IMG/VR virus record: IMGVR_UViG_3300033074_000747
From: an uncultured virus (IMG/VR IMGVR_UViG_3300033074_000747)
Taxonomy: Duplodnaviria; Heunggongvirae; Uroviricota; Caudoviricetes
DNA length: 64,000 bases
Reading direction: 5' to 3' (one strand)
The stretch's first letter is position 1, and each line of letters starts with the position of its first letter. The notes beneath the pieces were generated by a model. It ran no database searches and was not told where the DNA came from. It saw only the letters and a list, made by a program, of their open reading frames with translations. Positions 6,956 through 25,742 of the stretch are shown here, piece after piece. The position numbers and the translations under genes are program-made.

Positions 6956-7039
6956 TCCGTAAACCTCCCATCTCTTGGCTCCTGTCGAGATTCGATGTCG
7001 TGTAGAGGGTGTACCAAGTCGATAACTTCGTGCGGCAGC

Positions 7040-11271: not shown

Positions 11272-12452
11272 CAGATACCCGCCCTCATGAATGCTCCAAC
11301 TGACCCACTGACCCGTTCATAGATCTTATCTCTAGCAGCTGCTGCGTTCTTGAACTTCTGTGAGAGACCCATTGCCTTGGCGACCCTGTGTGGTGACTGT
11401 TTTCCAATTAGTTCGTCAACCTGCCTGTCCATCTCTTTATAGTCTTGAGTCACACCCTTGCCTCGACCACTCACACCTCGTCCGCCACTGCTCTTTGCCT
11501 CACTGATGAACTTGTCCTTCAGATCGTTAATCTTGGTCGCTGTATCCTTGGCCTGAGCCTCCGCCTTCTCAACGGACTTGGAGGTCACCTTAGACTTGAC
11601 TGATACCTTCGCGGCCTTCTCGTCCATCTGAGCCTTCTTCAGCTCGGCCTTCAACGAGTCGAGCTTGGCCTTCGCCTCGGCCACCTTGGCCTTGAGCTTC
11701 TCGACCTTCGACCCGCCCTTGTCGCCCTTCGATGAACCCTTGCCACCGCCTGCGGCACCATCCTTGCAGGTGTCACCACCGTGCTGGTTGCACCAGTTCA
11801 CCGCCAGGTCGGTCCAATCCTGAAGGTCGGTCCAATCCTCGATGGATCTGGCACCGTCGGAGAGTTGATTCACGAAGATCCCGCACCCGTCGTGGTTACT
11901 GCAAGCGCCCACCTGGTCAGGCAGGACAGCGAGATGGTCTGGTCGGTAGTTTCGGGCCTCGCGGTCGTAGGCGCGGCCCCGGCTGTCGAACCCCGGCTTG
12001 ACTGGCACGCTGTCAGTACCAAGGCCGGTGGAGACCTCGATGGGGATGCCCTTCAGCAGTCGCGGGAGCACGCGCGCGCCTGGATGGAGTGTCTTGTCGG
12101 CGGCCTTGACCCTCTCGACGTCGAACCAGCTCTCGGCCTTCAACTTGCCGTCCGGGTCGACTCGATCCTTGCGGACCTCGCCGATCACCAGGCCCTTACC
12201 CTCGTCGCGATCCGACTCGTCAGTGTTGGCGCTGACGGGCGTGCCGTTGCGGGTGGGGTGGTACAGGACGAGCGGCGTGCCGTCCCAGGAACCCTCGCTC
12301 TTGCGGTTCTGGTCTTCGGTGTAGTTGAGTGGCCCCTGGCTACCGGCAAGGACACCAGGGGTGATGAGAGTTGTAGGCGCGACAAGGTAGGTCTTACCGT
12401 TGCGTCGTACCTCGCGGGCCTTACCAGATATGTTAGCGACCAGGGTGTCCAT
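11271..12452 (-). CDS. Prohead protease (DUF2213-like) with a C-terminal extension
   Basis: WDGTPLVLYHP, IEVSTGL and PDHLAVLPDQVGACS..DGCG signature; upstream of the scaffold and MCP genes. Confidence 0.8.
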   Translation of the reverse strand: MDTLVANISGKAREVRRNGKTYLVAPTTLITPGVLAGSQGPLNYTEDQNRKSEGSWDGTPLVLYHPTRNGTPVSANTDESDRDEGKGLVIGEVRKDRVDPDGKLKAESWFDVERVKAADKTLHPGARVLPRLLKGIPIEVSTGLGTDSVPVKPGFDSRGRAYDREARNYRPDHLAVLPDQVGACSNHDGCGIFVNQLSDGARSIEDWTDLQDWTDLAVNWCNQHGGDTCKDGAAGGGKGSSKGDKGGSKVEKLKAKVAEAKAKLDSLKAELKKAQMDEKAAKVSVKSKVTSKSVEKAEAQAKDTATKINDLKDKFISEAKSSGGRGVSGRGKGVTQDYKEMDRQVDELIGKQSPHRVAKAMGLSQKFKNAAAARDKIYERVSGSVGAFMRAGI

Positions 12453-13101: not shown

Positions 13102-13337
13102 TCTCCGAATAAACTGAACCTGGGGAGCACGGCCGACATATCGCCGCAGCTAACTACCAGATCTGTGGATTTAACCAGTCCGATGTATTTCTCGTAATTC
13201 CAGGTGGACCAGTCCCCTTTGGTGACTTGTGCGTAGGCGGCTATCACGGCCTGGACCGGATCAAGACAGTAGCCCCGCCACTTGCCCGTCGATAGGTCCA
13301 ATACTTCGGTCATGGTTACTTCTCGACCTTTGTCCAT
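13098..13337 (-). CDS. Hypothetical protein
   Basis: Overlaps the end of the 13316 ORF; start may be the internal MTEVLDL. Confidence 0.45.
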   Translation of the reverse strand: MDKGREVTMTEVLDLSTGKWRGYCLDPVQAVIAAYAQVTKGDWSTWNYEKYIGLVKSTDLVVSCGDMSAVLPRFSLFGD

Positions 13338-15706
13338 GCCCCTGTAACCTGATCTTTATACACTACTGGGAATGGCCATTCGGCTGCCTCCTCTTTCTCA
13401 AATCGGCTCATATGCTTGGTCACCACCAGACCCTTGATCTCTGATGGTGGTATCTTATCAGCGTACACTCTGCGCTCGAACTCGTAGTCATCGGTATCTG
13501 GGGCCTGGTGATCCTCAATCTTGCCATGATCCTTCAAAGTATCCTCATCCATTACGAACACATACCGTCCAAAACGACCACCCTGCCCCTCGGTCGTCCA
13601 ATCAAGGTTAGATGACATCGAAGTGCTCCCTATATTCCCGCCCGCTCCACCTCCGAATACAGACTCCTCTCCTGGGGTGAATCCTTTCTCCATCACCTGG
13701 ATGGCGGCCTTTGTTGTATGGAATACCGGGGTCTTTACCCCAGGGAAATTGGATGATACGCCTTCCCAGTCCTTGCCGTGATCTCCGTATCTTGCAGCTA
13801 TGGCTTCCTCTTTTTGTCGTTGCATGTACTCGGCATGACTAGTCGATCCGGCTGATCCCGTTGAACTACAACTGTTATCCCTAGCACCTTCTCCGGGACA
13901 AAAGGCATTCAGCACGTCCCGCCACTGGTTTGCCACCGCCGCCACCCTCTGCCGCAGCCGCCGGGCCTGTTCGCGGAGGAGGTCTTTCTTGAGTGCCTTG
14001 CGTTCCTTGTCTCTTCTGCGAACCGATTCATGCGTTTGTTTGGCCTGTCCTCTCAGCTTGGTGAGACGGTCTCCGGACGGCAGTGACCCCTGGGCCTTCT
14101 CAGACAGTTGGTCATCCGGGGTTCCGATGAGCTTCTTCAGCTCGCGCATGTCCTTCACCGGCTGCATCTGACTCAGGCTGTACCGGTCGCTGCCCCTCTT
14201 GTAGTAGATCCGGTTGCCGCTGAAGTTCTCCTTGTTGACCCCTCCGCCGTAGGTCTCCCGGTCGTCGATCACCACCGTGTGGAACGGGTTGCCGGTCGCC
14301 TCGGCGTGGTCCACCTTCCGTACCAATGAGTCGGGGTGGACGCTGATCGAGGTCTTGGAACCCACGGTCATGGACTTCACCTCGATGTCGTGGTCCTGCC
14401 CCTTGATCCGCAGCTTCACGTCGTAGGGCTTCTTGTCCTTCTGACCTGGGTCGGTCGTCTCCTCCTCCGGTATCCCGCCGATGCCCTTAGCTACTTCGTG
14501 CTTCACCTTCTCAGCGTGGTTGTGGATCTTGCCGTCCACCCTCGCGCCGACGTACTTGCCGCCTCCACCGCCCTCCCTAGCCGAGCAGGAATTGTCGTGG
14601 CCACCTCCCTGACCGGTGGGGCAGAAGGCATTAGCTACGTTAATCTGTATGGAAGATGGGTCAAATACTACTAATACTTTTTTTCGGTCCTCCCAGGTTA
14701 TGACTGAATCGTACCCCTTCTCTTGCAGTATGTCGGTCAGTAATACGCCCCAGGGTTTGTCAGATCCTGCTTCCCGCCGCCTTTCCATCTCTGGCCTAAA
14801 TGGACTCTTTGGGCCGGACAGGAAAGGCATATCACCGGTTTCCTCAAAGTCCATATGATCCATCTGTATATAAGGGTTCTTTACAGTTAGCTTCGCGTCC
14901 AAAACTTCTTCACCATACCCTGACGCATGTCTTCTACGGTCAGTGCTACCGGGCCTTGGCAAACCTGATTTAATTTCATCTTCAGTAGGATCTATGAAAA
15001 AGTATACTCCGGCTCCATAATATTGGGTTTTGCCCTCCTCCAAACTGAATCCTTTTGCGCGAACTTTAGTAGCAGAATCCTTAGACGTACCATGAGACCC
15101 TGAGCAAGAGTTATCCCTGCCGCCACCCTCCCCTGTAGGGCAGAAGGCATTCGTCACAGGTATGTAGGACTGAGCCCATGACTCTGCTGAATCCTCGTCC
15201 GTACCCAGGATCGAGTGACCGATCTCATGAAATAGTGTCCGTGGGGAATCTGACTCTCCGTCCCACGTCGAGGCAAATACCGTGCCGGTCTCGAAGTCGA
15301 ACGCTCCTCGCACCTGACCACTCTCCTCGATCCCAGGGTCCACCCCGATCTCCTCCATGCGAGCATACATGTCTTCCGGGTTCTCGAACACCTCGATCCG
15401 CTTGGCTACTGACTGCATCATCTGGGACTGGGGTATCTTACTGACCCATCCGGCGGCCTTCGCTGCAACCTCCTCGGAAGTAGACTCAGGGTCAAAGTCG
15501 ATCGCCACGTTGCCATAGGCCGTCTTCACGCTGCCCGCTGACTTGAAGGTTCGGTCTGAACCGTAGGGGTCCGCTGACATTCCACCCTTTGAGCTGCATA
15601 AATTATCCCTCGCGCCCTCTCCGGGACAGAAGGCATTTTCTACAGAATCGCCTATAGATTTAATAATCCTGGACATAGAGTCTTCTGGCAAGTCTACAGC
15701 TAACAT
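13316..15706 (-). CDS. Four-domain effector polyprotein: HExxH metallopeptidase-like, ART-PolyVal-like, PD-(D/E)XK nuclease-like and a second ART-like domain
   Basis: TLFHEIGH; HGT...YGAGVYF...KNPY...GYDSV...VVFDPSSI; PYDV...DIEVKS; VFHTT...STSMS...EFERRV. Each domain is preceded by NAFCP..DNxCS. Confidence 0.65.
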   Translation of the reverse strand: MLAVDLPEDSMSRIIKSIGDSVENAFCPGEGARDNLCSSKGGMSADPYGSDRTFKSAGSVKTAYGNVAIDFDPESTSEEVAAKAAGWVSKIPQSQMMQSVAKRIEVFENPEDMYARMEEIGVDPGIEESGQVRGAFDFETGTVFASTWDGESDSPRTLFHEIGHSILGTDEDSAESWAQSYIPVTNAFCPTGEGGGRDNSCSGSHGTSKDSATKVRAKGFSLEEGKTQYYGAGVYFFIDPTEDEIKSGLPRPGSTDRRRHASGYGEEVLDAKLTVKNPYIQMDHMDFEETGDMPFLSGPKSPFRPEMERRREAGSDKPWGVLLTDILQEKGYDSVITWEDRKKVLVVFDPSSIQINVANAFCPTGQGGGHDNSCSAREGGGGGKYVGARVDGKIHNHAEKVKHEVAKGIGGIPEEETTDPGQKDKKPYDVKLRIKGQDHDIEVKSMTVGSKTSISVHPDSLVRKVDHAEATGNPFHTVVIDDRETYGGGVNKENFSGNRIYYKRGSDRYSLSQMQPVKDMRELKKLIGTPDDQLSEKAQGSLPSGDRLTKLRGQAKQTHESVRRRDKERKALKKDLLREQARRLRQRVAAVANQWRDVLNAFCPGEGARDNSCSSTGSAGSTSHAEYMQRQKEEAIAARYGDHGKDWEGVSSNFPGVKTPVFHTTKAAIQVMEKGFTPGEESVFGGGAGGNIGSTSMSSNLDWTTEGQGGRFGRYVFVMDEDTLKDHGKIEDHQAPDTDDYEFERRVYADKIPPSEIKGLVVTKHMSRFEKEEAAEWPFPVVYKDQVTGAWTKVEK
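13865..13909 (-). repeat. Peptide-coding repeat NAFCPGEGARDNSCS
   Basis: Read directly; copy 4 of 4 in the 13316 ORF. Confidence 0.95.
14582..14632 (-). repeat. Peptide-coding repeat NAFCPTGQGGGHDNSCS
   Basis: Read directly; copy 3 of 4 in the 13316 ORF. Confidence 0.95.
15101..15151 (-). repeat. Peptide-coding repeat NAFCPTGEGGGRDNSCS
   Basis: Read directly; copy 2 of 4 in the 13316 ORF. Confidence 0.95.
15593..15637 (-). repeat. Peptide-coding repeat NAFCPGEGARDNLCS
   Basis: Read directly; copy 1 of 4 in the 13316 ORF. Confidence 0.95.
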
Positions 15707-15708
15707 AA

Positions 15709-18663
15709 TTACACCCCCAAATACTCAACTTCGACATGATTAGGTCCTGACCCAGTCACACGAAACCGAGCGTTTGCTGGAAGCAATATCTCGGACGCCC
15801 TCGCTTCCACGAATACTCCAGGAGATCCTTGTTTGGCACTAATCCTCATCTGGTATTTACCAAAGATATTGGCTACATCGCTGGATCTTGATGTGCTACA
15901 AAACTTAGCGCCTACTGTCATCTCCTCTCCAACAGATAGACTCCTTAGACTATCTATGTACGGACCCTCCAGACCCCTATACAAAGTCTCGTCTTGTGGT
16001 AGCGAATTGGAGGTGACTATATCTTGCAGAATCTTGCCTTCCTCTGTTGGCTCGCCTGTAAACACGTTAGTGTAAGTTATAGGGGCATCATTAGTGTACC
16101 TTATAACCAGTGGATGATCGTTTGCTTGTCCGTATAGTTTAGTGGTGTCTTTGGCGGATTCTACCATCCTATCGAGTGATTCTTCTGAGAAAGATCTATG
16201 ACTCCCTGTTTTGTCAAGAGCATCTTTGAGCTTTGCCAGTGACTCTTTAACCTTAGCTCCTACTGACTCCAGAACCTCTGAACTGACCCTGGATGGATCC
16301 CTACCTTTCTTCTCTTTCTTTGACAACTCCTTCAGCGCCCCCGGCCCCTTGACTATCTCCCCATCCTCACCGATTTGAACGTGGGTGCCCTTGATCGTAA
16401 TCCAATCGCCCTCCTCGGCATTATTAATTGAAGAGAACATATTGTCAACCAACGCCATAGCCTCGTACTCCCAGTCGGCCAACAGCACTGGTCGAGGATC
16501 GGTTCTCTGATTGAGGATGCTATGCGGCCGCACCGGGTCCAGGTCGATGGTGAACTCGTCGTCGTCCTCCGCGCTCGCGCGTACCGCCCGCTCGATGGAC
16601 TTGGCTCCACGTACCTGGTCATCCTCATCCTCGCCCACGTTGGCAGGAGTCCAGCTACATCTGCAGTGAGGGTGACGTGGGATGAGGCCCCTCGCCTCCT
16701 CGATCTTCAGCACTACGCCCTCCATCGCCTCACACTTAGGGCATACCTTCTCGTCGGGGGTGACGATCCACTCGACCATCACGCCGACCTCCTCCACCCC
16801 CAGGTTCTCCAGCGCGTCCAGCTGGCCCTCGGAGTGGGCACGTATCAGCTCGGTCCTTGCGATGCTCTCGGCCCGCACCCGGCTGATCCCATCCACGCTC
16901 TCCGTGATCTGACGTGCCACCTCGTCGGGGGCTGCCCCGGTCACCAGCCCCTCGCTCAGGGCGCGGAGGGTCTTGGTGCTCATCTCCTCGGTCATCCCCT
17001 CCAGGTCTACCATCGCCCTCTTGACCAGTGACTCCAGCCGCTCCCTCTGTGCCCTCTGGGCAAAGCTATCCTTGAGGAACTGCTCGCGGCTTCCCTGGTA
17101 GAAGGATGCCGGGTCGGACACCCTCACCGGCCGCCCCTTGGGTCCTGCCTTGCCAGCCTTCATCCGGGCCTGGGCCGTGTCGTCGAACGCTCGCCCAGCC
17201 CCGCGCGCGTACCCCTGGCGTATGTACTCGGCCCACACGTCAAGGTTCTCGTCGCTCAGCAGCTCCTCGTGCAGGGTCTCCCTCAGCCAACTCTCGAACC
17301 GGGCAATACGATCCGCCACGGGGAGATGAGACCAGGACACGTTAGCCGTCGGCCCCAGCTCGATCAGCGTCTTGTTCCCAACCTTGTCGGAGAAGGTAAG
17401 CCGGTCGAAGGTCAGCTCAGCCCCCTCTCCCTGCCAGCTGCCCACGTACTTCCTCCCCTCGCCCGGCCGGAGGTAGGCGACCGTGATGTGAGGCCGGTAG
17501 ACGGGGTGGGTGTCGGTGTGCTTCAGAGACCCGGAGAGTAGCTTATTCAGTCGGTAGAGGTCATCTCCTTCCACGTCCACCTTCAGCACGTCGTACATAT
17601 CACTTCCGCGCTGGGCCTGCCCCTCGTTGGCTGGGAAGAGGCTCAGCGGTCCCAGTTTGATCTTCACCGGGCCGAACCCCGACACGACCTGGCGAACCCT
17701 CTCGGCGTCGTCGGCGTGCAGGCCGTACTTTACCGTGACATGGGGGTCCGTCTCCCGTCCGTGCTTTGCCAGCTCCTCGTCGGGTATCCGGGCGGCCTCC
17801 TGGAAGATGAGGCCTGACACCGATCCCTCGGGCAGGTCGAACTGGGTGGAGCTGAACTCGAACGGCCCCTCGCGGTTCTCCAGTAGAGTGTTTGACGTAA
17901 GACCCTTATGATTAAAAACTGCATATGTGTGATCAGTCTTCTTGACACCATTTACTCCAGCTCGCGATAATGATACTTGAATATCCCTCTCTATCGGTCC
18001 ACGAACTTGAGATTTGATCGCCTTCATTTCCTCTTTAGATATTCTGCCGGCATCATAATCTGCTTCCGCATTGTCCTCAATATCGTATCTACGAGACCTA
18101 ACTTTTTTATCAACTTCATCGTACAACCTACGACCGTACTCAGAAGTCAGATCTAGTATAGAGCTTACCGGCTTGACCTCATGAACTTTACCATAACTTG
18201 ACGCACTGGTCTCATCATCGAAGAACCATGTCCCGAGATCCGACTGATTTCCGCCAGTCATGGGGCTGTCGGAGTCGCTACCCCTATATAGTCTGGGAGA
18301 CTTGATAAGCTGAGATCTATCAACCCTGACCTTGACGTCGATACCTCCATTGCCCCCCTTGGGGCTGCAACTGTTATCGCGAGCGCCCTCCCCAGGACAG
18401 AAAGCATTGAACACGCCTTGGCCCGGCTCCCGGCTCTTCAGTCCCAGAGCGTCGTCCTTCACCAGCAGGTCGAAGATCCGCATCTTGATACGCGACATCT
18501 TGGCCCGCAGCTTCTGGAGGAATACCCTGCGCATCGTGGCCGTGCGCGTGGGATCGGCCTTCAGCGGGTTTGGCCCCTTCAGCCTCTTGGCCTTGGTAGG
18601 CTTGCCCCGCTTCTTGGTGTTGGCCGAATAAAGTGCCTGACGTTTTCTCGATCGGACCTTCAT
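15709..18663 (-). CDS. MuF/gp7-family head morphogenesis protein fused to ART-like, 2H phosphoesterase and VIP2-like ART domains
   Basis: MuF: RAESIARTE...VCPKC...PRHPHCRC. 2H: PHVT/PHIT. C-terminal ART: LYRG...FCSTS...SEILL. N-terminal domain: LYRG...GTWF...SYG...YAVFN. Confidence 0.85.
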   Translation of the reverse strand: MKVRSRKRQALYSANTKKRGKPTKAKRLKGPNPLKADPTRTATMRRVFLQKLRAKMSRIKMRIFDLLVKDDALGLKSREPGQGVFNAFCPGEGARDNSCSPKGGNGGIDVKVRVDRSQLIKSPRLYRGSDSDSPMTGGNQSDLGTWFFDDETSASSYGKVHEVKPVSSILDLTSEYGRRLYDEVDKKVRSRRYDIEDNAEADYDAGRISKEEMKAIKSQVRGPIERDIQVSLSRAGVNGVKKTDHTYAVFNHKGLTSNTLLENREGPFEFSSTQFDLPEGSVSGLIFQEAARIPDEELAKHGRETDPHVTVKYGLHADDAERVRQVVSGFGPVKIKLGPLSLFPANEGQAQRGSDMYDVLKVDVEGDDLYRLNKLLSGSLKHTDTHPVYRPHITVAYLRPGEGRKYVGSWQGEGAELTFDRLTFSDKVGNKTLIELGPTANVSWSHLPVADRIARFESWLRETLHEELLSDENLDVWAEYIRQGYARGAGRAFDDTAQARMKAGKAGPKGRPVRVSDPASFYQGSREQFLKDSFAQRAQRERLESLVKRAMVDLEGMTEEMSTKTLRALSEGLVTGAAPDEVARQITESVDGISRVRAESIARTELIRAHSEGQLDALENLGVEEVGVMVEWIVTPDEKVCPKCEAMEGVVLKIEEARGLIPRHPHCRCSWTPANVGEDEDDQVRGAKSIERAVRASAEDDDEFTIDLDPVRPHSILNQRTDPRPVLLADWEYEAMALVDNMFSSINNAEEGDWITIKGTHVQIGEDGEIVKGPGALKELSKKEKKGRDPSRVSSEVLESVGAKVKESLAKLKDALDKTGSHRSFSEESLDRMVESAKDTTKLYGQANDHPLVIRYTNDAPITYTNVFTGEPTEEGKILQDIVTSNSLPQDETLYRGLEGPYIDSLRSLSVGEEMTVGAKFCSTSRSSDVANIFGKYQMRISAKQGSPGVFVEARASEILLPANARFRVTGSGPNHVEVEYLGV
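18364..18408 (-). repeat. Peptide-coding repeat NAFCPGEGARDNSCS
   Basis: Read directly; lies inside the MuF ORF. Confidence 0.95.
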
Positions 18664-18680
18664 AATACGATTACCCAGTG

Positions 18681-19079
18681 CTAGACGTTGGAGGCAGCAA
18701 TCTTGATATACCCGTGGATAATAACGTCAACTTGCCCTGACCCACTGGCCTTCACCTTGGGGTAGGTTCCAGCCCTACATATGTGAGGGACTGGCAGTGT
18801 CTGGTATGCCATGACACTCGTAGTGACCACTCCCCTGGCAATTAACTCGCCTACGCTTAATGAGCTGTCAGGCCCGTCGAACAATTGGAGTATGATAGAC
18901 CCGCCTATGGCGGTCGTGGACATCGAGCAGCTGGTAATAACCACCTCGTCGTCGTCTGCTAAACTGATCGTCGTGGTACCAGACCCACCTAGTTCATAGA
19001 GTGTGAGTCGACTAGCCTCCTCGCTCAGGTTACTGGCATCTGCACTGCTGAACTCTCCGTGAAATGGCTTGGTCTTCAT
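18681..19079 (-). CDS. Small beta-rich virion structural protein
   Basis: Start MKTKPF overlaps the upstream stop (ATGA); jelly-roll-like composition. Confidence 0.45.
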   Translation of the reverse strand: MKTKPFHGEFSSADASNLSEEASRLTLYELGGSGTTTISLADDDEVVITSCSMSTTAIGGSIILQLFDGPDSSLSVGELIARGVVTTSVMAYQTLPVPHICRAGTYPKVKASGSGQVDVIIHGYIKIAASNV

Positions 19080-19363
19080 GTCAAATACTCCCCCTTGTCG
19101 TTTGGCCGGAATGTGACTCGAACGCTCCTCCACCGCCTGCGCCGCTTGACCAGGATGACCGCTGCGGCCGCCTCGTTGTCCCTGCGGATCTGCTCCTCCT
19201 CGTCCAGGTACAGCGGGGTCGGCACGATGACTTCGGCCCGCGGAGACGGCCCGTCGAGGACCGAGACCCCGCCACCTCCTCCCTGGGAAGGAGAGGGGAC
19301 GTCGGACAGGTCCCAGCTGTTCCCCCAGGATGACCCCCAACTATCGCCCCAGCTGCTTGGCAT
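19076..19363 (-). CDS. Hypothetical protein with SWG repeats
   Basis: SSWGDSWGSSWGNSW N-terminus; coupled on both sides. Confidence 0.5.
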   Translation of the reverse strand: MPSSWGDSWGSSWGNSWDLSDVPSPSQGGGGGVSVLDGPSPRAEVIVPTPLYLDEEEQIRRDNEAAAAVILVKRRRRWRSVRVTFRPNDKGEYLT

Positions 19364-20880
19364 CAGGCTGGCCCCCAAGGATCTTCGCTCGTACCCGTGC
19401 CGTCCACCTCGACCCCGTTGACGTACTTCACGTCAGCCTTCATCATCCCGTCGGCGGTGAGCGCTGCCGGTATCCGGCTCGCCAGGCTTGACAGGCTGGA
19501 TGCGGAGGCCGCTGACTTGGCCGCGTCGTAGGCCGCGTCCAGGGTCAGGCCTGTAGTGGTATTCGGCCCCTGCTCCAGAGCGTTCGCCGTGAAGCGTGAC
19601 ACCCCACCGTCATTCTCGACAAGTTCATTGAGTAGAGCATCTGCCGCCCCCGGCTTGCTTGCAGGATCGTAGGTTGTCGCTAAGAGGTGATCCAGGTGGT
19701 ACGTCTCGATGGCCGCGTCCGCCTCGGCGTTCACGTCGGCCTTGGCCTGGGTCCCCAGCGATCCGATGGACCCGGACAGGTCACCAGTGATGTTGCCAGT
19801 GATCGCTACCGTCCAGGACGTGATGTTCGCTAGTCCGTTGGCTGGTAGCTGGATGTTGGTCCCAGCCGTGAGGGTGCGCGTGGCGTTGCCCCAGACCGCC
19901 GTCGCGATGGCGGCGAGGGTAGCAGTCGCGTCCCCTTCGTTGATCAGGAACTCCTCCACCTTGGCAGCAATAGCGGCCAGGAGCGCGGTGGCGTCCCCTT
20001 CATCGAGTATTACTGCTTCCGTCGCCGCCGCTATTGCCGCCAGAGCAGTTGCATTGGGCGCGTCCACCAGATCCATCTCGTCGCCTGCTTGCGCCGCATT
20101 ATCCGTACCGCGCATGTCTGTATTCGTCGTGGTCGTGTCTACTAGGACTACCCCCTGCACCTTGTGAGCTGCCGGGTCATACCCCGCATCTGCAAAGTCT
20201 TTCCAGTCGGTAACGCTCTGCCCGTCCCCCAGAATCTCCTTCACGTCCACGTGCGCCATACCATCCGATTCGATGGTGAGAGTTCTCCCCGCCGTCGTCG
20301 GCTGGAGCCAGTTCTGGACGGACCTCCCCTCCGGCTGGTAGATCGTGTAGGTGTCGCTGCTGTCCGGTTGGGCTGTGTTCCACGCAGGCGAGACCTTTCC
20401 CACCTTGGTACTGCCCACGTAGTCGTTGATGATGCGCGCCTCCGTCGTCCCATCGATCACCGCCACGCACAGGCATCCACTGTAGAAGTCATCGACAGAA
20501 CTGTCGCCGCTGGCTAGTTGGATGTCCCCGGTGTCGTTGCTCCCCTGGCACGTCCCTGAGGAGAGAACGGGCAGCTTACGCGGATACAGCGTGAGGATCG
20601 TGGTCTTGGCTCCGGTGCTCTGGATGCGTACAGTTACAATGTCGGCCGTCGTCTCTGCGGCTGTGAGAATGAGGTAGACCACCCCGGAGGAAGTCGCGAT
20701 CTCCACAGCCTCGTTGGTACAGTCCGTGAATGTATCGCCATTGAGAGATACCTCTGAGTCAGGGGAGGACGGACTTACAGGATCGCCATCCGCATCCAGG
20801 AGCGGGGCCACTACAGTGTAGCTGACCCCATAGACGGGATAGGGGAGCGCATTGTTTCTGAACGCTGTCACTTCTGCCAT
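19363..20880 (-). CDS. Virion structural / fibre-like protein
   Basis: 505 aa, rich in Ala/Thr/Asp; internal EGDATA-LAAIA repeats; C-terminal GTGTSEDPWGP. Confidence 0.5.
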   Translation of the reverse strand: MAEVTAFRNNALPYPVYGVSYTVVAPLLDADGDPVSPSSPDSEVSLNGDTFTDCTNEAVEIATSSGVVYLILTAAETTADIVTVRIQSTGAKTTILTLYPRKLPVLSSGTCQGSNDTGDIQLASGDSSVDDFYSGCLCVAVIDGTTEARIINDYVGSTKVGKVSPAWNTAQPDSSDTYTIYQPEGRSVQNWLQPTTAGRTLTIESDGMAHVDVKEILGDGQSVTDWKDFADAGYDPAAHKVQGVVLVDTTTTNTDMRGTDNAAQAGDEMDLVDAPNATALAAIAAATEAVILDEGDATALLAAIAAKVEEFLINEGDATATLAAIATAVWGNATRTLTAGTNIQLPANGLANITSWTVAITGNITGDLSGSIGSLGTQAKADVNAEADAAIETYHLDHLLATTYDPASKPGAADALLNELVENDGGVSRFTANALEQGPNTTTGLTLDAAYDAAKSAASASSLSSLASRIPAALTADGMMKADVKYVNGVEVDGTGTSEDPWGPA

Positions 20881-22059
20881 CTACCACCCTCGCATTCCAA
20901 TAGCTCTTCCGAATGGTCCTGTATTGTGCCTCACCCCGCCCATGCGCTTCATAGCCGGGTGTCCCACCGCAGGGGCCGCAGGTATGTAATCCACCATGAG
21001 ACCGAGCGAGGACAGGCCTGTCACTCCTGTGAGATTCTCCTTAACCCCTATCTCCAGGTTCTGAACTTCCGACAGTGTCCAGGCAACACCCGTGTCGGGG
21101 CTGACGCTCTGGAAGAACCCTTTAGCGAGAGTGTAGCTACCGCCGGACAGGTTTGCCACCTCGTAGTCAGCCCCGCCTATGCGGAAGAAAAATCGAACCC
21201 CCGCAGACCCTGATATAGCCGCAGTCGCGCCGATTGGGCAAACTGCATTGATCGTACCGGACAGAGCGGAACCGTCGACCGTGAAAGACTCCTTGTCTCC
21301 CACCGATCCTGTAGATGCAAGGTACGTCGTTGCTCCGTCCGTGGGCCAGTCATCCACTTGCTCGTAGTGACTACCTGTTCCAGCCCCGATGGAGAATGTG
21401 GAATAAGTTCCGTCTGCATTAGGTAGGAGGAGTACCGACTGTCCGGCTCCGATCCAATCGTCGTCCCTGGTACAGATGTCGTCAAAGAAATACTCGATGG
21501 ACTGGCTTGAGCGATTGATACTCTTGCCAAATACTGCGTATCGGTGCTGGTTGGTAGAGAGGTTCCCAGTACCGGATATCTCAGACACCCCGTCTACCTT
21601 CACCTCCCATGCCGCCGTGGTCCCGGTCCCGCACATGACCTCGATCAAGTACCAGGTGCCAGCATCCAGCACAGAGGCCCCGGTGTCCAATAATGCGTTG
21701 GCAGAGTTGTACGCCAGGATGTTCCCTGAGCTATTGATGCGGAGCGCGAGCTTGTGAGAAGATGTCGCGACGACCGCAAAGGCAAAGAATATCTCGCTGT
21801 TAGCAGCTGGTTTCGTGGCGTACCGGAAATAGAATCTTGAGTAGAGAGTATCTACCAGTATCGCATTGTTCGTGTTACCGAACGCGCTCCCGGATTTACC
21901 GTAAGCTGCATAGGTAGCCCCCGTAGTGGACGGGGAAAGAGTCTGGAGGCTCCTTGACCCCGTCCTAGCAACAGAGGAGGATATGGCAGCATTGCTGGAC
22001 GCGGAATACAGACCGCTGCTGCCATGCTCATGCGAATCAAAGTGGTAGACCGTCATCAA
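20881..22059 (-). CDS. Beta-sandwich (LamG/lectin-like) virion surface protein
   Basis: GTWYLIEV...EVKVDG...YFFDDI concanavalin-like pattern, then a second beta domain. Confidence 0.5.
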   Translation of the reverse strand: MMTVYHFDSHEHGSSGLYSASSNAAISSSVARTGSRSLQTLSPSTTGATYAAYGKSGSAFGNTNNAILVDTLYSRFYFRYATKPAANSEIFFAFAVVATSSHKLALRINSSGNILAYNSANALLDTGASVLDAGTWYLIEVMCGTGTTAAWEVKVDGVSEISGTGNLSTNQHRYAVFGKSINRSSQSIEYFFDDICTRDDDWIGAGQSVLLLPNADGTYSTFSIGAGTGSHYEQVDDWPTDGATTYLASTGSVGDKESFTVDGSALSGTINAVCPIGATAAISGSAGVRFFFRIGGADYEVANLSGGSYTLAKGFFQSVSPDTGVAWTLSEVQNLEIGVKENLTGVTGLSSLGLMVDYIPAAPAVGHPAMKRMGGVRHNTGPFGRAIGMRGW

Positions 22060-22616
22060 TTAATGAGCGTATCGCCCACTCCCACATCGACAAGAAGATC
22101 AGCATTGCCGGGGCCGAGTGGATCATAGAACGTGTCAGCACCAGCCCCGCCGGATACTGTATCCCGCTCACCATCATCCGTTGTGGTGCTGAGATCCGGA
22201 ATCAAAACATCATCACCAGCACCGCTGGTGAGGTAGTCACGACCAGCACCGCCCCAAAGGGTATCGTTGCCTGATCCACCGACCAGAGTATCGTTCCCGT
22301 CGCTGCCGGTCAGCAGATCGTTCCCATTCCCTCCAGTGAGCCGGTCATTGCCGTCCTCTCCGTAGAGTTCAGCATCCAGACTCCCGACGTGCTGGACCAC
22401 GTCGTTGCCGTCACCAGCAAATACCTGAACGATGCCAGTCACGTTGAATGATCCGTAATTCACTCCGTTGATGCGCACTGTTGCGGCAGCCGGGTTGGTC
22501 GTGGTGACTGTAATGAAGTCATTCGTGGCGTCACCGATCACCACGAGGTTTCCCCCGCCGTCCAGTCCAGCCGATGCTGGTGTAATGCGCATCTCAAGTT
22601 CTTCACATCGTAGCAT
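22056..22616 (-). CDS. RTX (hemolysin-type Ca-binding) repeat protein with a planctomycete-type N-terminal motif
   Basis: Multiple GGxGxDxL nonapeptides; N-terminal LRCEELEMRITPA. Confidence 0.75.
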   Translation of the reverse strand: MLRCEELEMRITPASAGLDGGGNLVVIGDATNDFITVTTTNPAAATVRINGVNYGSFNVTGIVQVFAGDGNDVVQHVGSLDAELYGEDGNDRLTGGNGNDLLTGSDGNDTLVGGSGNDTLWGGAGRDYLTSGAGDDVLIPDLSTTTDDGERDTVSGGAGADTFYDPLGPGNADLLVDVGVGDTLIN

Positions 22617-22643
22617 GGTAGTCCTCCCAAAGTTAGAGTGTTT

Positions 22644-23483
22644 TCAATCGGGCGAGATCTTCGCCCGCTTTATTCTACCCTTGGGGTCATGCTCGAACTC
22701 GACCGTCTCAGATCCCTCCTCCGGCACGTTGAAGTTCACGTTGATCGGTGGCTGCGGAGGGATCGTCACCTGAGCCGGAGCCACGTCGATCCTGGGGTTG
22801 AAGTGGACCACCGGGGCCTCCTGCCGAGGCACGTTGACTATCGGGGCCGGAGACGGCGGCACCTTCAGCTCATTGACGATGCTCACCGGGGTCTCTGGCA
22901 CGATGATGTTCGGACTGTTATGGACGGTCACCGGAGGGTTGTTCACGGTCACGTTCGGAGCAGGGTTGGGCGGCACGTTCACGGTGATGTTCTGCGGGCT
23001 GTCCGACTCCTGGTAGTTGACCGTGACGTTGATCACTGGTGCCACCTTCTCCCGTGAGGGTAGGGTAGCCTGGACTGTCGGTTGGTTGGCCGGGGCCGGA
23101 GGATCGGCGGTGACCTGGACCGTCGGATTGGCGTTGGCGGCGGTGACCTTGCCCTTCTTGAGAGCCTCTTTCTCATCCTTCTGGGGGTTTGGGTCCTGAA
23201 GGCTGCCGTCCTTCTTCAGTGCCGGCGGCTTCACGGCCGTGCCCACCTGCTTGCCGGACTTGGCCACTCGGTCAGACCACTCCTCCTTCTCCCGCATCTC
23301 CTGCTCCCAGTACTCCTCCTCGGGGGTCAGCTTCTTGTTCGCCAGCTGTGATTCCGCTGCCTTTCCCATGTCGGTCGCTCCCTTCTTCTTGATGTTCGCC
23401 TCGATGTCCTCGATGCGGTCCGGTGTCCTCTTGGCCCAGTCCGCGTTCTTCAGGTCACTGTCCGGGTATATCTTCTTCGCCAT
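22644..23483 (-). CDS. Head-region protein with V-N-V-P-rich repeats
   Basis: ITVNVPP, VTVNNPP and IVNVP repeats; C-terminal VEFEHDPKGRI. Confidence 0.5.
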   Translation of the reverse strand: MAKKIYPDSDLKNADWAKRTPDRIEDIEANIKKKGATDMGKAAESQLANKKLTPEEEYWEQEMREKEEWSDRVAKSGKQVGTAVKPPALKKDGSLQDPNPQKDEKEALKKGKVTAANANPTVQVTADPPAPANQPTVQATLPSREKVAPVINVTVNYQESDSPQNITVNVPPNPAPNVTVNNPPVTVHNSPNIIVPETPVSIVNELKVPPSPAPIVNVPRQEAPVVHFNPRIDVAPAQVTIPPQPPINVNFNVPEEGSETVEFEHDPKGRIKRAKISPD

Positions 23484-24430
23484 TACGTCGGACCTCCCTC
23501 GTATGCGTAGGCTCCGGCCTTGCTGACGCCACGAGCCATGACCACTACCTCGCCCTCGCTCAGGCAGCCGAACCCGGTGCGCGGCGTGCTGAGGATGTCG
23601 CCGACCCGTACGTCGGCCCTCACCATCATACCGTACTTCTCCCCGCCCGAGAACCCTGCCGCCGTGGGCCGGTGGAAGGAGAAGGAGCTGATCGGTTGCA
23701 GCTCCACGCTCACCGACTCGAACAGGTCCTCCCGCTCGGTGAAGCGGGCCTCGGCCGTATGCTTGCTCATCCCCTCGATCGCCTTCTCGTCGTTGAAGGC
23801 CATGCCCCGGTACAGGGTGATCTTGTCGTCGGGGCCGAACCCCATGCTCTTGAAGTCCTCCTGGGTCGCCTCGTACATCTGCCGGAGGATCGCCTGGTTG
23901 ATCTCCATCATGGCGTCCGCCGTGTCCATCACCCCTTTGTCCTCGTTCTCATCCAGGGTGTCCTTGAAGTGCTGCGGGTAGTCCCGGTCCGCCATGAACT
24001 CCTGGGAGGCGGCGATCTGGACCGCCAGGGCGTCTGGGTTGTGGTCGCCCGAGGTGTCGGCCCACTGGTCGACCGCACTCTTGACGTACGCCTTGGCCTC
24101 CTGCGGGCTGCCGAACCCCTCGTGCTCCATCAGCCGCCGGGTCAGGTCCTCGGTCAGACCTATCTTGTTCGCAGCCCTGGACGCATCGCTCACGTCGAAG
24201 GGGTCGTCGCCGGCCCCGGTCCCCTGCAGCATGTAGGTCTTCAGGATCGAGTTGCGGCCCATCGCAAGAGCCGACCCGCCCTTGTCTCCTGGAGAGCAGG
24301 AGTTATCGCTACCTCCGCCCTCGCCCGTGGGACAGAAGGCGTTGGCAATGGTAGTCCATCCCAGATCGCTCGGAACGTCGACCCAGCGGACCTTCCTCGG
24401 CCTGTCAGCCGTTAGATCAGACCAGCTCAT
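23483..24430 (-). CDS. ADP-ribosyltransferase-like protein (R-S-E class) with an NAFCP tag
   Basis: ITLYRG, PISSFS and SEGEVVV motifs; likely start MSWSDL at 24430. Confidence 0.6.
   Translation of the reverse strand: MSWSDLTADRPRKVRWVDVPSDLGWTTIANAFCPTGEGGGSDNSCSPGDKGGSALAMGRNSILKTYMLQGTGAGDDPFDVSDASRAANKIGLTEDLTRRLMEHEGFGSPQEAKAYVKSAVDQWADTSGDHNPDALAVQIAASQEFMADRDYPQHFKDTLDENEDKGVMDTADAMMEINQAILRQMYEATQEDFKSMGFGPDDKITLYRGMAFNDEKAIEGMSKHTAEARFTEREDLFESVSVELQPISSFSFHRPTAAGFSGGEKYGMMVRADVRVGDILSTPRTGFGCLSEGEVVVMARGVSKAGAYAYEGGPT
24293..24343 (-). repeat. Peptide-coding repeat NAFCPTGEGGGSDNSCS
   Basis: Read directly; near the N-terminus of the stand-alone ART ORF. Confidence 0.95.
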
Positions 24431-24431
24431 C

Positions 24432-25742
24432 TCAGGTGTTGCCTCCCCAGATGCGGCCGCCCATCGTGGCTCCACGGACGATATGCGGTGGTATCCCCTC
24501 TCGCTCCTTCACAGTCTTCGTGGCGAACCGGGCCAGCGCTCGACGGTCGATGCTCAATGCCTCGCTCGGTATCCCGTCCAGCAGCTTGGGAGGGCTGCCG
24601 TTCTGGACGAAGGTGAATCGAGCGTTGGGGTTGTCACGGTTCCGCTCGTAGAAGGACTGGTGGTTGCGAGCCCCGATGGCGTAGGAGTCCGCGAACACCT
24701 GCGCGTCGACCATGCGGCCATCCCTCGGGTCCTGCGCCCTCTTCACCACCCCCCGCTCGGGGTGAGCCCACTGGTTCTCCGGATCGGCGTGGACGTAGAC
24801 GTAGTTCACCTTGAGGCCCCGCCTCTCGGCCTCCTGCTGTATCCAGGGGTTCTCCGTGGCGTTCTGGTCCCCTGCTGAATCCCAGATCACGGCACTGCGG
24901 TCGGCGATGGCAGCGGCCTGGGGGACGTTCGGGTTGCCGTCTGCGTCCTTGCTGTTGATGGCGTAGCCCTTGCCCGCTCCGCATCCTCCGACCGTGACCA
25001 TGATCTCCTCGCCTGGCTTCATCGTGTCGAGGTGCTGGACGAAGGCCCTCTTGCAGACCGCGTTGGCCGTCTGGTGGAGCGCCAGGTTCAGGGTCGCCCG
25101 GTTCTGGCTCCGCTCCTCCTGGCTCAGCTCGTCGGACTTCCAGGCCCGGTGCAGGTCCTTGGCGTCATCGGTTCCGAACGTCGGCGGTTTACCCTTGGCG
25201 GCAGCGGCGGCCACTACCATACTGCGGAAGTCGGAGGCCAGCCCGTCTGGATTCTTCTCGAACGCCTCGATGAACTCGCCCTCCACCGCCCTCTCGTGCT
25301 CGGTCAGGTTGGGCAGCCGATTCATGCCGGGTGGAGGCGGAACCTCCTTGGCGGGTACGCCCACGCGCGAGTACTCGGTCACCCCGTCCCCGTCGATGTC
25401 GGCCTCCACGTCAGGAACGTAGGCGTTGCCCGGCGGAGGTGCTGTCTTCGCCTCCTTGGAGATCGCCCCACCCCCGCCGCTACATCGGCCCCGCTCGTCC
25501 CTCTCGCATCGTGCGAAGTAGGACTCATTGACCGCCAGCTCGCCTGCGACCTCCGGCAGCGTCATCATGTGGTTGGCCAGCTTCAGAACGGATTCCAGGT
25601 CATCGTGCTCGGTCCCGTCCAGGTGGTTTGCCGCCACCACGGTGAGACCGGCTAGCAAGTCCAGTCGTTCCTTGTCGTCCTCATAGGGCGTGAACTCACG
25701 TACCAGCCGCTCCTGCGCTTCAGGCGTCTTTAGATTGATCAT
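24432..25742 (-). CDS. Zeta-toxin-family P-loop kinase
   Basis: VTVGGCGAGKG Walker A, VIWDS, VNYVYVHADP and RAQ...GRMV as in zeta/PezT-type kinases. Confidence 0.65.
   Translation of the reverse strand: MINLKTPEAQERLVREFTPYEDDKERLDLLAGLTVVAANHLDGTEHDDLESVLKLANHMMTLPEVAGELAVNESYFARCERDERGRCSGGGGAISKEAKTAPPPGNAYVPDVEADIDGDGVTEYSRVGVPAKEVPPPPGMNRLPNLTEHERAVEGEFIEAFEKNPDGLASDFRSMVVAAAAAKGKPPTFGTDDAKDLHRAWKSDELSQEERSQNRATLNLALHQTANAVCKRAFVQHLDTMKPGEEIMVTVGGCGAGKGYAINSKDADGNPNVPQAAAIADRSAVIWDSAGDQNATENPWIQQEAERRGLKVNYVYVHADPENQWAHPERGVVKRAQDPRDGRMVDAQVFADSYAIGARNHQSFYERNRDNPNARFTFVQNGSPPKLLDGIPSEALSIDRRALARFATKTVKEREGIPPHIVRGATMGGRIWGGNT

Follow-up and report, generated by a model that had tools for sequence, protein, structure and literature searches.

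The window analysed in our study, a stretch of 64 000 nucleotides from an uncultured virus (IMG/VR IMGVR_UViG_3300033074_000747), covers a phage head region with genes for a portal protein, a MuF protein, a protease of the T4 gp21 fold that carries a scaffold-like tail, and a capsid protein (Table 1). Three genes, all on the minus strand, contain six copies of a peptide tag with the consensus [VI]-x-N-A-F-C-P-(T)-G-x-G-(G)-x-x-D-N-x-C-S, which occurs in two forms, C-x11-C and a shorter C-x9-C, with three copies of each.

Table 1. Positions of the head genes, tags, related junctions and other features discussed in the text
Feature	Position	Strand	Remarks
Major capsid protein	7560..8813	-	PF19774 DUF6260 at residues 89-412; 89-aa N-terminal propeptide
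Predicted capsid-protein cut, L-T-A-N↓A-S	8541-8558	-
Acidic scaffold-like protein	9455..10372	-	four [TVI]-x-N-[AV] motifs, one C-terminal
Head-region protein	10369..11271	-	four-Cys knuckle (11068-11103); three [TVI]-x-N-[AV] motifs
Prohead protease	11271..12452	-	residues 1-200, fused to coiled-coil scaffold-like tail
Degenerate protease/tail junction	11736..11807	-	L-A-V-N, two-Cys loop, Gly run; pLDDT 41-53 (AlphaFold, no metal or disulfide modelled)
Free-standing cargo polyprotein, 796 aa	13316..15706	-	23-aa leader and four tagged modules: 24-185 HExxH; 186-358 ART-PolyVal-like; 359-599 PDDEXK-like lead; 600-796 without assignment
Tag 4 of 796-aa protein, short form	13868..13909	-	Asn residue 600, codon start 13909; regex
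Tag 3 of 796-aa protein, C-x11-C form	14585..14632	-	Asn residue 359, codon start 14632; regex, core count, HMM
Tag 2 of 796-aa protein, C-x11-C form	15104..15151	-	Asn residue 186, codon start 15151; regex, core count, HMM
Tag 1 of 796-aa protein, short C-x9-C form	15596..15637	-	Asn residue 24, codon start 15637; regex, core count, HMM
MuF polyprotein, 984 aa	15709..18663	-	N-terminal segment (1-85), tag, unmatched module, 2H phosphoesterase (299-403), N441 site, MuF core (~446-693), ART-like end
Bare P-T-A-N↓V-S motif (N441) at MuF core start	17335..17352	-	no Cys loop
Tag of MuF polyprotein, short form	18367..18408	-	Asn residue 86, codon start 18408; adjoins end of MuF N-terminal segment
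Free-standing tagged DRAT-like ADP-ribosyltransferase, 330 aa	23483..24475	-
Tag of DRAT-like protein, C-x11-C form	24296..24343	-	Asn residue 45, codon start 24343; regex, core count, HMM
436-aa protein	24432..25742	-	L-A-V-N / C-x6-C / GGGG junction (25467-25538) before P-loop-bearing module
Portal protein	25739..28387	-	PF06381, phrog_146; C-terminal add-on of ~190 aa
Portal junction	26303..26395	-	V-A-N-Q-W..., second Cys-loop kind (N-C-G-G-x-G-x-G-x-P-G-P-C), Gly run
Radical-SAM protein with SPASM domain	41596-42669		PF04055 E 1.9e-10; PF13186 E 9.2e-9

A six-frame regular-expression scan of the window for N-x-F-C...C returned exactly six matches, on the minus strand only, and an HMM of the tag run over all six frames scored the six tags at 36.9-56.5 bits, the next-best match reaching 10.1 bits. 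The back-translated 14-base core AAYGCNTTYTGYCC occurred 6 times against 0.01 expected, a count that none of 100 shuffles reached. This confirmed the six copies in three genes claimed in the preliminary description, which gives each of these sites by its low end. Between copies, the third base is shared at only 5-9 of 15-16 identical residues, the flanking DNA is unrelated (15-40 % nucleotide identity) and the longest DNA common to all six is just the 14-base core, degenerate positions included. The scrambled synonymous positions and unrelated flanks indicate that the tag copies are kept by selection on the peptide and not on the DNA. These features speak against the tag being a DNA-level cassette border that promotes recombinational shuffling of effector modules, comparable to pre-toxin motifs in polymorphic toxins; despite the very diverse partner domains and the highly mosaic modules behind the tags (for most window modules, the set of 180 tagged proteins held few relatives or none), we give this reading very little credence.

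The modules behind the tags bear out the earlier domain calls in part. In the 796-aa protein, residues 160-164 form the HExxH motif and a weak match to a PHROG metalloprotease was obtained (E 0.0015), and the 330-aa protein, which probably starts at the ATG at 24430, could be named a DRAT-like ADP-ribosyltransferase (Atlas 0.92; structure match TM 0.58, which reaches the naming threshold). Two further calls are weak or sub-threshold leads: module 2 of the 796-aa protein matched Pfam ART-PolyVal at E 4.4e-4 and 21.4 bits, under the 31.2-bit cut-off, and module 3 gave PDDEXK_14/Hjc/RecU leads only (Atlas score 0.89, TM 0.40-0.54). An enzyme had been placed behind every tag; the domain search gave no match for module 4 of the 796-aa protein or for the opening module of the MuF protein. 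Nor are all effectors tagged, as neither the 2H phosphoesterase of the MuF protein (PF13563, 29 bits, over the cut-off) nor its C-terminal ART-like end (PF03496, E 0.009) carries a tag. The 436-aa protein has relatives in 10 tag-bearing locus groups.

By its fold, the protease of the window belongs to the capsid proteases. The best structural match was T4 gp21 (5jbl_A; Z 10.2, rmsd 3.3 Å, 139 residues aligned), followed by herpesvirus assemblins at Z 6-8, and H65, S141, D172 and H173 were invariant among 19 sequences. The preliminary description had pointed to DUF2213 proteases; no Pfam match of this protein to that family was found at E ≤ 0.01, and the fold is T4 gp21/assemblin-like. The Cys-loop type of the portal junction is also found in loci L116 and L035. 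The stretch VANQW.D..N precedes both this loop and tag 4 of the 796-aa protein.

Beyond the window, the tag peptide is widespread among uncultured phages, being present in 1352 protein clusters out of 1.84 billion; a search for a cultured phage bearing it found none. The literature search found no published description of the tag, in agreement with the preliminary description, and the peptide seems undescribed. Its carriers are MuF, portal and protease chains with ARTs, nucleases, GNATs, topoisomerase IB and more. The carriers of tag chains are procapsid proteins: 1-5 tagged modules split the MuF N-terminal segment from the MuF core in 76 of 83 proteins, the portal leads tagged chains in 11 proteins and the protease domain does so in 7, one of them with 10 tags. 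As had been proposed, the tags lie at domain boundaries and nearly all head a module. None was found inside MuF-core, portal, protease or 2H spans, where 53.8, 8.6, 3.1 and 5.1, respectively, were expected. Among 180 tagged proteins, 39 % have their first tag in the N-terminal 60 residues, fewer than 60 residues follow the last tag in only 5, and the median tag-to-tag spacing is 239 residues (5th percentile 124). An association with the protease family of the window was not upheld, as other head lineages account for half of the long loci that bear tags; of 82 loci chosen for the similarity of their protease, only 15 had a tag within 10 kb, which indicates that this protease family works without the tag.

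On sequence comparison the tag consists of two parts, a distinction that is new here: a universal core from position +1, [AGV][FYW]C[PA]TGxGGGxDxxC, and preceding residues that vary with phage lineage, VxN in this lineage and ExR, xxK, GLxL or F/Y in others. Where a locus group holds a relative of the window protease, 87 of 90 tags have N at position 0; across the 212 tags of groups without such a relative this position is R in 114, N in 58 and K in 20, each group being uniform (R 41/41, R 31/31, K 9/11, K 4/4, L 6/6). The other lineages have other head genes (portals phrog_12/2662/113; proteases phrog_80/9644 and phrog_3894/976), the link between lineage and protease for the non-N classes being based on eight annotated loci. 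Enrichment of E-x-R in the head proteins of the R lineage was only partly positive, poor ORF calls hampering the search. Free-standing tagged proteins keep the full lineage motif, even with a leader of 4-9 residues, and in none of 78 does the core directly follow Met, which argues that the protease-side motif itself is needed.

The same motif recurs in this lineage on proteins of kinds known to be protease substrates, with [TV]-x-N↓A at the capsid propeptide/core border, at the MuF core border and repeatedly in scaffold-like proteins. Among 63 homologues, tag-free phages included, the capsid border, which coincides with the start of Pfam DUF6260, has N in 58 and N↓A in 52, and the motif stands just before the MuF core in 66 of 103 proteins compared with 134 of 1477 control windows. 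The four motifs of the acidic scaffold-like protein compare with 0.46 expected (0 of 300 shuffles reach four) and the three of the adjoining head-region protein with 0.34, whereas about 30 non-head proteins of the window have five altogether, which is not above expectation. On this comparison of sequences, the predicted cut after Asn at the tags, already proposed in the preliminary description, has strong comparative support, although at the capsid and MuF borders the conservation of N↓A could reflect a place in the folds themselves rather than a cutting site. The capsid core and MuF core carry the bare motif without a Cys loop, which suggests that the loop is specific to cargo.

Cutting at the tags might instead be the work of the embedded HExxH peptidase or of self-cleavage, by Asn cyclisation or at an acid-labile Asp-Pro, which we consider quite improbable. 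Besides the HExxH and weak metalloprotease match of the first 796-aa module, some tagged proteins contain PF07737 (anthrax-lethal-factor-like peptidase), zincin-like peptidases have been proposed to process polyvalent proteins (Iyer et al. 2017, PMC5512222), and in 65 % of tags the glycines are followed by D-P. However, the search for relatives of the HExxH module found them in only 6 of the 180 tagged proteins and in no locus group, D-N replaces D-P in 6 of 6 window tags, and the motif shared with the border of the capsid protein speaks for the capsid protease. Other lineages have R, K, L, F or Y at position 0, so Asn cyclisation cannot be the general mechanism. The replacement of Asn by R, K or L also counts against thioether stapling of the N-x-x-C and D-x-x-C halves by a radical-SAM/SPASM enzyme, as in NxxC-type ranthipeptides, whose thioether bonds are installed by such enzymes. 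The window does encode a radical-SAM/SPASM protein, a radical-SAM gene of the same PHROGs adjoins head genes in locus L115, and PF04055 matched in 4 of 5 tag-rich phage genomes, the fifth having no radical-SAM gene that we could find. Yet PF04055 also matched in 3 of 5 related tag-free genomes, relatives of the window enzyme were found in 0 of 5 tag-rich genomes, and that enzyme sits among thymidine-hypermodification genes (5-hmdU DNA kinase, glycosyltransferase-like and thymidylate-synthase-like), which leaves stapling extremely improbable.

The tag could also be a structural spacer only, a zinc-knuckle-like or disulfide-stapled cap with a flexible linker, in chains that stay uncut and whose modules fold independently. 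This would accord with the near invariance of the glycines, the Asp and both Cys (100 and 97 % of 641 tags for the two Cys), with the four-Cys CxxC...CxxC or two-Cys loops that other phages have at the place of the tag behind the protease domain, and with the four-Cys knuckle of the window's head-region protein; in our own reading, the C-P-T-G and D-P-T-C halves resemble two CPxC knuckles, each minus one Cys. A spacer leaves unexplained the lineage-dependent three residues before the core, their match to the capsid/MuF border motif and the motif-bearing 4-9-residue leaders of free-standing proteins, and AlphaFold gave no confident fold for the tag (mean pLDDT 65 and no secondary structure when modelled alone, with no metal or disulfide in the model). 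We regard a mere spacer as rather unlikely.

Most likely, the tag comprises a site for the prohead protease and, behind it, a Cys loop specific to cargo, which the released module retains. From the anatomy, distribution, protease fold and motif statistics we infer cutting, packaging and injection: a two-Cys peptide right after a likely head-protease site suggests that the enzymes are probably freed inside the capsid and then injected along with the DNA. The residues [VT]-x-N would form the P3-P1 side of a site cut by the phage's own T4-gp21-like prohead protease, and the universal A-F-C-P-(T)-G-x-G-G-(G)-x-D-x-x-C with its Gly/Ser linker would label cargo modules only. Cargo would enter either by fusion to proteins built into the procapsid (portal, MuF N-terminal segment, protease) or as free-standing proteins with a short leader. 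Within the procapsid the protease would cut after Asn, leaving the Cys loop at the new N-terminus with Ala or Val as first residue. N-terminal Ala and Val are stabilising under the bacterial N-end rule. The modules (ART-like, PDDEXK-like nuclease, 2H phosphoesterase, HExxH peptidase) would exit the capsid together with the DNA, to act in the host at an early stage. Our best guess is that the Cys loop is a small metal- or disulfide-stapled cap marking cargo for capture or retention in the procapsid. Taken as a whole, this explanation of a protease-cut two-part junction, a cargo label and injected modules appears reasonably probable. The universality of the 17-residue core across phages with different proteases was counted against it.

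Among known systems, polymorphic toxins, said to be the subject of work by Zhang et al. in 2012, have pre-toxin junction motifs such as VENN in CdiA. Like these, the tag is a short conserved peptide exactly before highly variable effector domains; unlike them, it would serve capsid rather than secretion delivery, is dissimilar in sequence, recurs within a single chain and is not conserved at the level of DNA. In T4, the internal proteins and Alt carry a capsid targeting sequence that is processed by the prohead protease gp21, the targeting peptide preceding the cut and being discarded. Procapsid-loaded effectors, an assemblin-fold protease (that of the window being nearest in fold to T4 gp21 itself, Z 10.2), a short P3-x-P1 motif and injection would be common to both, with cut and injection predicted here. 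In contrast to T4, the conserved 17-residue element follows the predicted cut and would stay on the cargo, is common to phages with different proteases and cutting motifs, and occurs up to 10 times per chain. Giant phages SPN3US and phiKZ also have ejection proteins cut by the prohead protease (PMC5694885, PMC7411985, PMC10052503), many head-internal proteins being processed at a short consensus by a gp21-like protease before they are ejected, as would happen here; the abstract openings hold no hint of a Cys-loop header or of bead-on-a-string polyproteins. Phage-type polyvalent proteins, for which ART-PolyVal, ART, 2H, GNAT, ParB, NUDIX and zincin-like peptidase domains and MuF/portal fusions are described (Iyer, Burroughs, Anand, de Souza and Aravind 2017, PMC5512222), share with the tagged chains the domain repertoire, the fusions and the idea of packaging and injection. 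That paper attributes processing mainly to embedded metallopeptidases and places assemblin-like peptidases at C-termini, whereas the protease here is N-terminal to the tagged chains; the terms 'cysteine', 'linker' and 'glycine-rich' occur 0 times in the paper. Relative to the model as given there, the new element is a junction tag coupled to the motif of the prohead protease.

A six-frame regular-expression scan of the window found exactly six N-x-F-C...C sites, and a tag HMM scored these six copies at 36.9-56.5 bits, with everything else at or below 10.1 bits. For the back-translated core, the universal part of the tag from position +1 on, 6 matches were found against 0.01 expected, and none of 100 shuffles reached 6. 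The six copies in three genes reported in the preliminary description were therefore borne out by scan, shuffles and HMM alike. Three of the tags are C-x11-C and three are the shorter C-x9-C. Between copies the third codon base is common to only 5-9 of 15-16 identical residues and the flanking DNA is unrelated, which indicates, on sequence grounds, that selection acts on the tag peptide and not on the DNA. A DNA-level repeat or recombination signal was dropped because synonymous sites are scrambled, and it is against this same pattern that a cassette border acting at the DNA level has to be weighed as a rival explanation.

Tag anatomy was studied in 641 tags from 180 proteins, with the consensus [TV]-x-N-[AV]-F-C-P-T-G-[PEK]-G-G-G-[VI]-D-[PN]-[ST]-C-[SG]-P with Gly/Ser-rich residues after it. 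All tags have the first Cys and 97 % have the second; the spacing is C-x11-C in 619 and C-x9-C in only 9, so the short form in the window is rare. In 39 % of the proteins the first tag is no more than 60 residues from the N-terminus, the median inter-tag spacing is 239 (5th percentile 124; n = 461) and fewer than 60 residues follow the last tag in only 5 of the 180 proteins, several of which are apparently degenerate or truncated. No tag fell inside MuF-core, portal, protease or 2H phosphoesterase (2H) spans, against 53.8, 8.6, 3.1 and 5.1 expected, and the earlier claim that the tag marks domain boundaries rather than occurring within domains holds for these four families. An uncut spacer is a rival reading of the tag. 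The ligands on offer are two Cys and one Asp, and a zinc ribbon or zinc knuckle was rejected, as the four ligands in two knuckles are absent. The tag occupies the position that four-Cys motifs hold in other phages, and on this one hint the universal core may form a cap stapled by metal or disulfide. Modelled alone with AlphaFold, the tag had a mean pLDDT of 65 and no secondary structure.

Searches beyond the window used several approaches. A DNA pattern for N-A-F-C-P-T-G matched 73 IMG/VR stretches with 76 distinct peptides, 65 of which were stop-free and had, in the unconstrained tail, a second Cys with D/K/V three residues ahead; nearly all of these 65 read G-x-G-G-G-x-D-x-x-C. A single tag region as a protein-database query returned only 2 candidates, and alignment-based searches were needed. 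Searched with a profile of 71 tag 40-mers (A1), 1.84 billion proteins yielded 1352 cluster representatives at E <= 0.001, of which 402 reached E <= 1e-10 and 75 reached E <= 1e-30; single proteins carried as many as 10 tags. In a word-indexed search that scored 8000 proteins, 300 came out at E <= 0.01. The commonest domain partner was MuF (PF04233), followed by portal (PF06381), ART-PolyVal, ADPrib_exo_Tox, topoisomerase IB, GNATs, 2H, HNH, ParB, NUDIX, zeta-toxin-like kinases, sigma-70 regions and an anthrax-lethal-factor-like peptidase, a repertoire that is also that of phage-type polyvalent proteins (PMC5512222). A stricter core pattern, run on 185,579 prokaryote species with a single genome per species, found only 6 stretches, on 5 short MAG contigs. 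Among 50,697 cultured-phage records, tblastn with the 796-aa protein, a three-tag protein (P0081) and a 40-residue tag piece found no tag carrier, the sole match being at chance level (E = 2), with the proviso that the BLAST low-complexity filter may hide tags. As far as these searches reach, the tag appears to be widespread and confined to uncultured phages. PDB sequence searches with the three tagged proteins and the protease returned nothing relevant.

The head-region genes under study all lie on the minus strand of the phage genome, the right half of the window holds replication and DNA-modification genes, and the contig with the 796-aa protein is 99,456 bases long. The principal features are listed in the table.

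Coordinates of head-region and DNA-modification features in the window
Feature	Position	Strand	Match or remark
Protein with response-regulator receiver domain	5943-6971		PF00072, E 1.1e-12, residues 175-271; downstream of capsid gene
Probable major capsid protein	7560-8813	-	PF19774 residues 89-412, phrog_771
Two acidic proteins	10369-11271 and 9455-10372	-	
393-aa protein	11271-12452	-	phrog_760
796-aa protein	13316-15706	-	four modules
984-aa MuF protein	15709-18663	-	PF04233, E 6.3e-14
Five ORFs after the 330-aa gene	22644-23483, 22056-22616, 20881-22059, 19363-20880, 18681-19340	-	
330-aa protein, tagged	23483-24475	-	
436-aa protein	24432-25742	-	without Pfam match
Portal	25739-28387	-	PF06381, phrog_146
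Thymidylate-synthase-like protein	39080-40330	-	
Deoxyribonucleotidase-like protein	40321-41112	-	
Radical-SAM/SPASM protein	41596-42669	-	
Glycosyltransferase-like protein	42682-43806	-	
5-hmdU DNA kinase	44549-45469	-	PF18723, E 2.4e-46

The 984-aa protein belongs, by sequence, to the MuF / SPP1 gp7 head morphogenesis family (PF04233, 53.1 bits against a 29.6-bit cut-off, residues 567-670; phrog_758, E 6.4e-27) and holds 2H, MuF and an ART-like end, and the four modules of the 796-aa protein show different weak affinities. Two of the five ORFs between the 330-aa and MuF genes had no family match; another of the five, at 22056-22616 amid head and tail genes, encodes 186 aa with RTX calcium-binding repeats (PF00353, E 8.3e-19). 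The 436-aa protein, which has relatives in 10 tag-bearing locus groups (numbered with L), contains the P-loop G-G-C-G-A-G-K-G after a C-x6-C/GGGG junction and may be cargo of the zeta-toxin-like kinase kind.

Tagged modules are carried in several ways. The N-terminal segment of MuF proteins (MuFN), their first ~60-85 residues, reads D-P-T-R-T...E-D-A-F-G-L across 83 MuF proteins (residues 1-85 in the window) and is contiguous with the MuF core in 7 of them; in the other 76, including that of the window, the two are parted by one to five tagged modules, with the tag usually ~1-11 residues behind MuFN. In the uninterrupted MuFs a [TV]-x-N motif comes next. Because cargo is inserted behind MuFN and this motif follows it where no cargo is present, MuFN may either be a propeptide that is cleaved off or be what really anchors MuF in the procapsid. 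Portals head tagged chains in 11 proteins and the N-terminal protease domain of the window's 393-aa protein does so in 7, one with 10 tags. Elsewhere this protease domain is followed by a canonical tag (L011, L133), a second loop type N-C-G-G-x-G-G-x-P-G-P-C (L116) or four-Cys CxxC...CxxC motifs (L050, L102, L071). The second junction loop, [DEN]-N-C-G-G-x-G-G-x-P-G-P-C with a Gly run, is also seen at the C-terminal add-on of the window portal (26303-26395) and at protease borders in other phages (L116, L035), and may be a sister of the main tag. Degenerate junctions, in the form [AV]-x-N plus a two-Cys loop and a Gly run, occur at comparable places in the window portal, protease protein and 436-aa protein.

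In 78 free-standing proteins, defined by a first tag within 70 residues of the initial Met, the shortest leaders are of 4-9 residues and keep the full lineage motif; one has the seven-residue L-P-x-G-L-x-L motif immediately after Met, and none of the 78 has the core directly after Met. This suggests a requirement for the protease-side residues themselves. The leader of the 796-aa protein has 23 residues, and for the 330-aa protein the ATG at 24430 is the probable start, giving a leader of 29 residues. A T4-type capsid targeting sequence was rejected: in that system the discarded peptide ends at the cut, whereas here the conserved element follows the predicted cut and leaders are as short as 4 residues.

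The protein encoded at 11271-12452 had been described as a DUF2213 protease, an assignment that found no support, as no Pfam family matched the whole 393-aa protein at E <= 0.01; the only match was phrog_760 (E 7.4e-24), a PHROG of unassigned function. In the AlphaFold model pLDDT is >90 over residues 10-195, falling to 41-53 at the junction. Foldseek placed herpesvirus assemblins and T4 gp21 in its top rows, with weak E-values of 7.5e-3 and above, and VIA-align gave Z 10.2 with T4 gp21 (5jbl_A; rmsd 3.3 A over 139 residues) and Z 8.2 with the VZV protease. Our reading of this model is an assemblin-fold prohead protease with a coiled-coil scaffold-like tail. Across 19 protease sequences (alignment A2), H65, S141, D172, H173, C184 and C190 are invariant and include the candidate catalytic Ser/His. 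Residues 184-191 and their counterparts form an invariant G-A-C-S-x-x-D-G-C-G end, a short Cys pair next to the junction. At least 545 relatives of the protease were found in IMG/VR, and only 15 of 82 loci selected by protease had a tag within 10 kb, which counts against the processing model proposed below. Complex prediction with the protease domain (A2, residues 1-200) and the 40-residue tag alignment (A1) scored 0.02 (mark 0.32), a value that speaks neither for nor against an interaction. Cutting by the embedded HExxH peptidase, or self-cleavage, is the rival to cutting by this protease. In the adjacent acidic protein (10369-11271), the C-terminal half contains a small conserved domain, N-P-x-S-W-V-x-D-E-D-K-W-E-x-A-K-x-A-A-D-K...Y-x-A-V-V-x-x-I-Y-x-x-M-G-G, which has its own gene here and stands behind the protease as a fusion in other phages (L123, L149, L071).

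Comparison of lineages revealed a two-part tag, with a core that is alike in all lineages seen and a position 0, three residues before the first Cys, that varies with phage lineage. Locus groups with a relative of the window protease have N at position 0 in 87 of 90 tags, with V/T/L/A/I at -2, whereas in groups without one position 0 is R in 114, N in 58 and K in 20 of 212 tags. The motif is uniform within each group: E-x-R in L127 (41/41), L100 (31/31), L117 and L099; x-x-K in L097 (9/11), L109 (4/4), L101, L115 and L119; L-P-x-G-L-x-L in L079 (6/6); and F or Y at position 0 in L124. Among 20 tag-bearing groups with at least 14 kb of sequence, window-like head genes were present in 10 and not in the other 10. 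PHROG annotation of eight loci of non-N lineages gave portals phrog_12, 2662 and 113 and proteases phrog_80/9644 and phrog_3894/976, and here too tags stand on portal, MuF and protease-bearing proteins and on giant ones of 2300-2900 aa. The link between protease and motif in these lineages is suggested by these few annotated loci. In the R lineage E-x-R is enriched in portal chains, the capsid proteins being equivocal because several long ORFs there look spurious; the K-lineage capsid protein alignment showed no obvious border motif.

The lineage motif was also found in proteins that are likely substrates of the protease in this lineage. [TVI]-x-N-[AV] occurs four times in the scaffold-like 9455-10372 protein against 0.46 expected (0/300 shuffles reach 4), three times in the 10369-11271 protein against 0.34 expected and twice in the capsid protein, with 5 in all across ~30 non-head proteins. 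The capsid site L-T-A-N|A-S, at residue 89, is the exact start of Pfam DUF6260, with variable sequence upstream and a conserved core (A-T-x-L-R-K-x-E-W) downstream; this column reads N in 58 and N|A in 52 of 63 same-lineage capsid homologues, and the same pattern is seen in tag-free phages. The motif stands just ahead of the MuF core in 66 of 103 proteins compared to 134 of 1477 control windows (9 %), and most other MuF rows listed have [TV]-x-N with a different next residue. The window MuF protein has a bare P-T-A-N|V-S at N441, without a Cys loop. From the capsid, MuF-core and tag evidence together, the bare motif appears to head structural units, and the motif with an added Cys loop to head cargo modules. 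These N|A borders could instead be features of the fold rather than cuts.

Taken together, we consider it reasonably probable that cargo is co-assembled into the procapsid, either fused to portal, MuFN or protease or as a free tagged protein; that a gp21-like protease then cuts after Asn; and that each module is freed with the Cys loop at a new N-terminus starting with Ala or Val and is ejected along with the DNA. Both residues are stabilising at the N-terminus under the bacterial N-end rule. Four pieces would be predicted from the 796-aa protein and, from the MuF protein, at least MuFN, a tagged module plus 2H piece (87-441) and the MuF core plus ART-like end. A more speculative extension, which we think rather unlikely, is that the core is a portable cargo label, active once a prohead protease of any family exposes a free N-terminus, with unrelated head lineages having coupled one label to their own protease motif. 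The new amino group, two cysteines and Asp might, for instance, form a metal-binding hook that holds cargo in the capsid or primes ejection.

A radical-SAM staple on the tag would be a different role for the Cys loop, and the window does encode an rSAM/SPASM gene, but this gene sits in a thymidine-hypermodification cluster, relatives of its enzyme were found in 0 of 5 tag-rich genomes, and PF04055 was present in 4/5 tag-rich and 3/5 tag-free genomes, showing no association with tags. NxxC-type radical-SAM-modified peptides co-occur with a dedicated rSAM/SPASM maturase, and the tag was rejected as such a peptide because the genome tallies showed no such co-occurrence. The hypermodification-like cluster spans 39080-45469 on the minus strand, and the phage probably carries a modified thymine.

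The preliminary description knew of no published account of the tag, and we found none in the full-text literature: the core string returned only unrelated parechovirus papers, and work on MuF, polyvalent proteins, capsid targeting and prohead protease cleavage held no description. The words 'cysteine', 'linker' and 'glycine-rich' are absent from the text of PMC5512222, whose supplementary alignments could show the motif. The lineage covariation of position 0 and the capsid and MuF border evidence are new here.

Phages inject effector proteins along with their DNA and, to our knowledge, the sorting of large, changing effector sets into the capsid is known for a few model phages only. Here, hundreds of distinct enzyme modules are headed by one short label, which spans at least four or five lineages with different head proteases. 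If the proposed mechanism is true, the label would act as a general signal by which injected cargo is sorted or processed. The arsenal that uncultured phages inject could then be listed from sequence alone by taking each module preceded by a tag, and each lineage's protease specificity would be predicted by the residues ahead of the tag. The tag would also be a candidate means of getting foreign proteins into phage heads. Under the portable-label reading, any protein might be capsid-loadable with three to seven protease-side residues and the 17-residue core.

In comparison with known systems, the modelled protease shares its fold with the assemblin-fold capsid maturation proteases, T4 gp21, HK97 gp4 and herpesvirus assemblin. 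The 796-aa and MuF proteins resemble phage-type polyvalent proteins (Iyer et al. 2017) in combining several unrelated effector-type domains per chain, and also in their setting, as polyvalent proteins occur among portal/terminase-type genes or as MuF/portal fusions and the window genes, one of them a MuF fusion, likewise lie between portal and protease.
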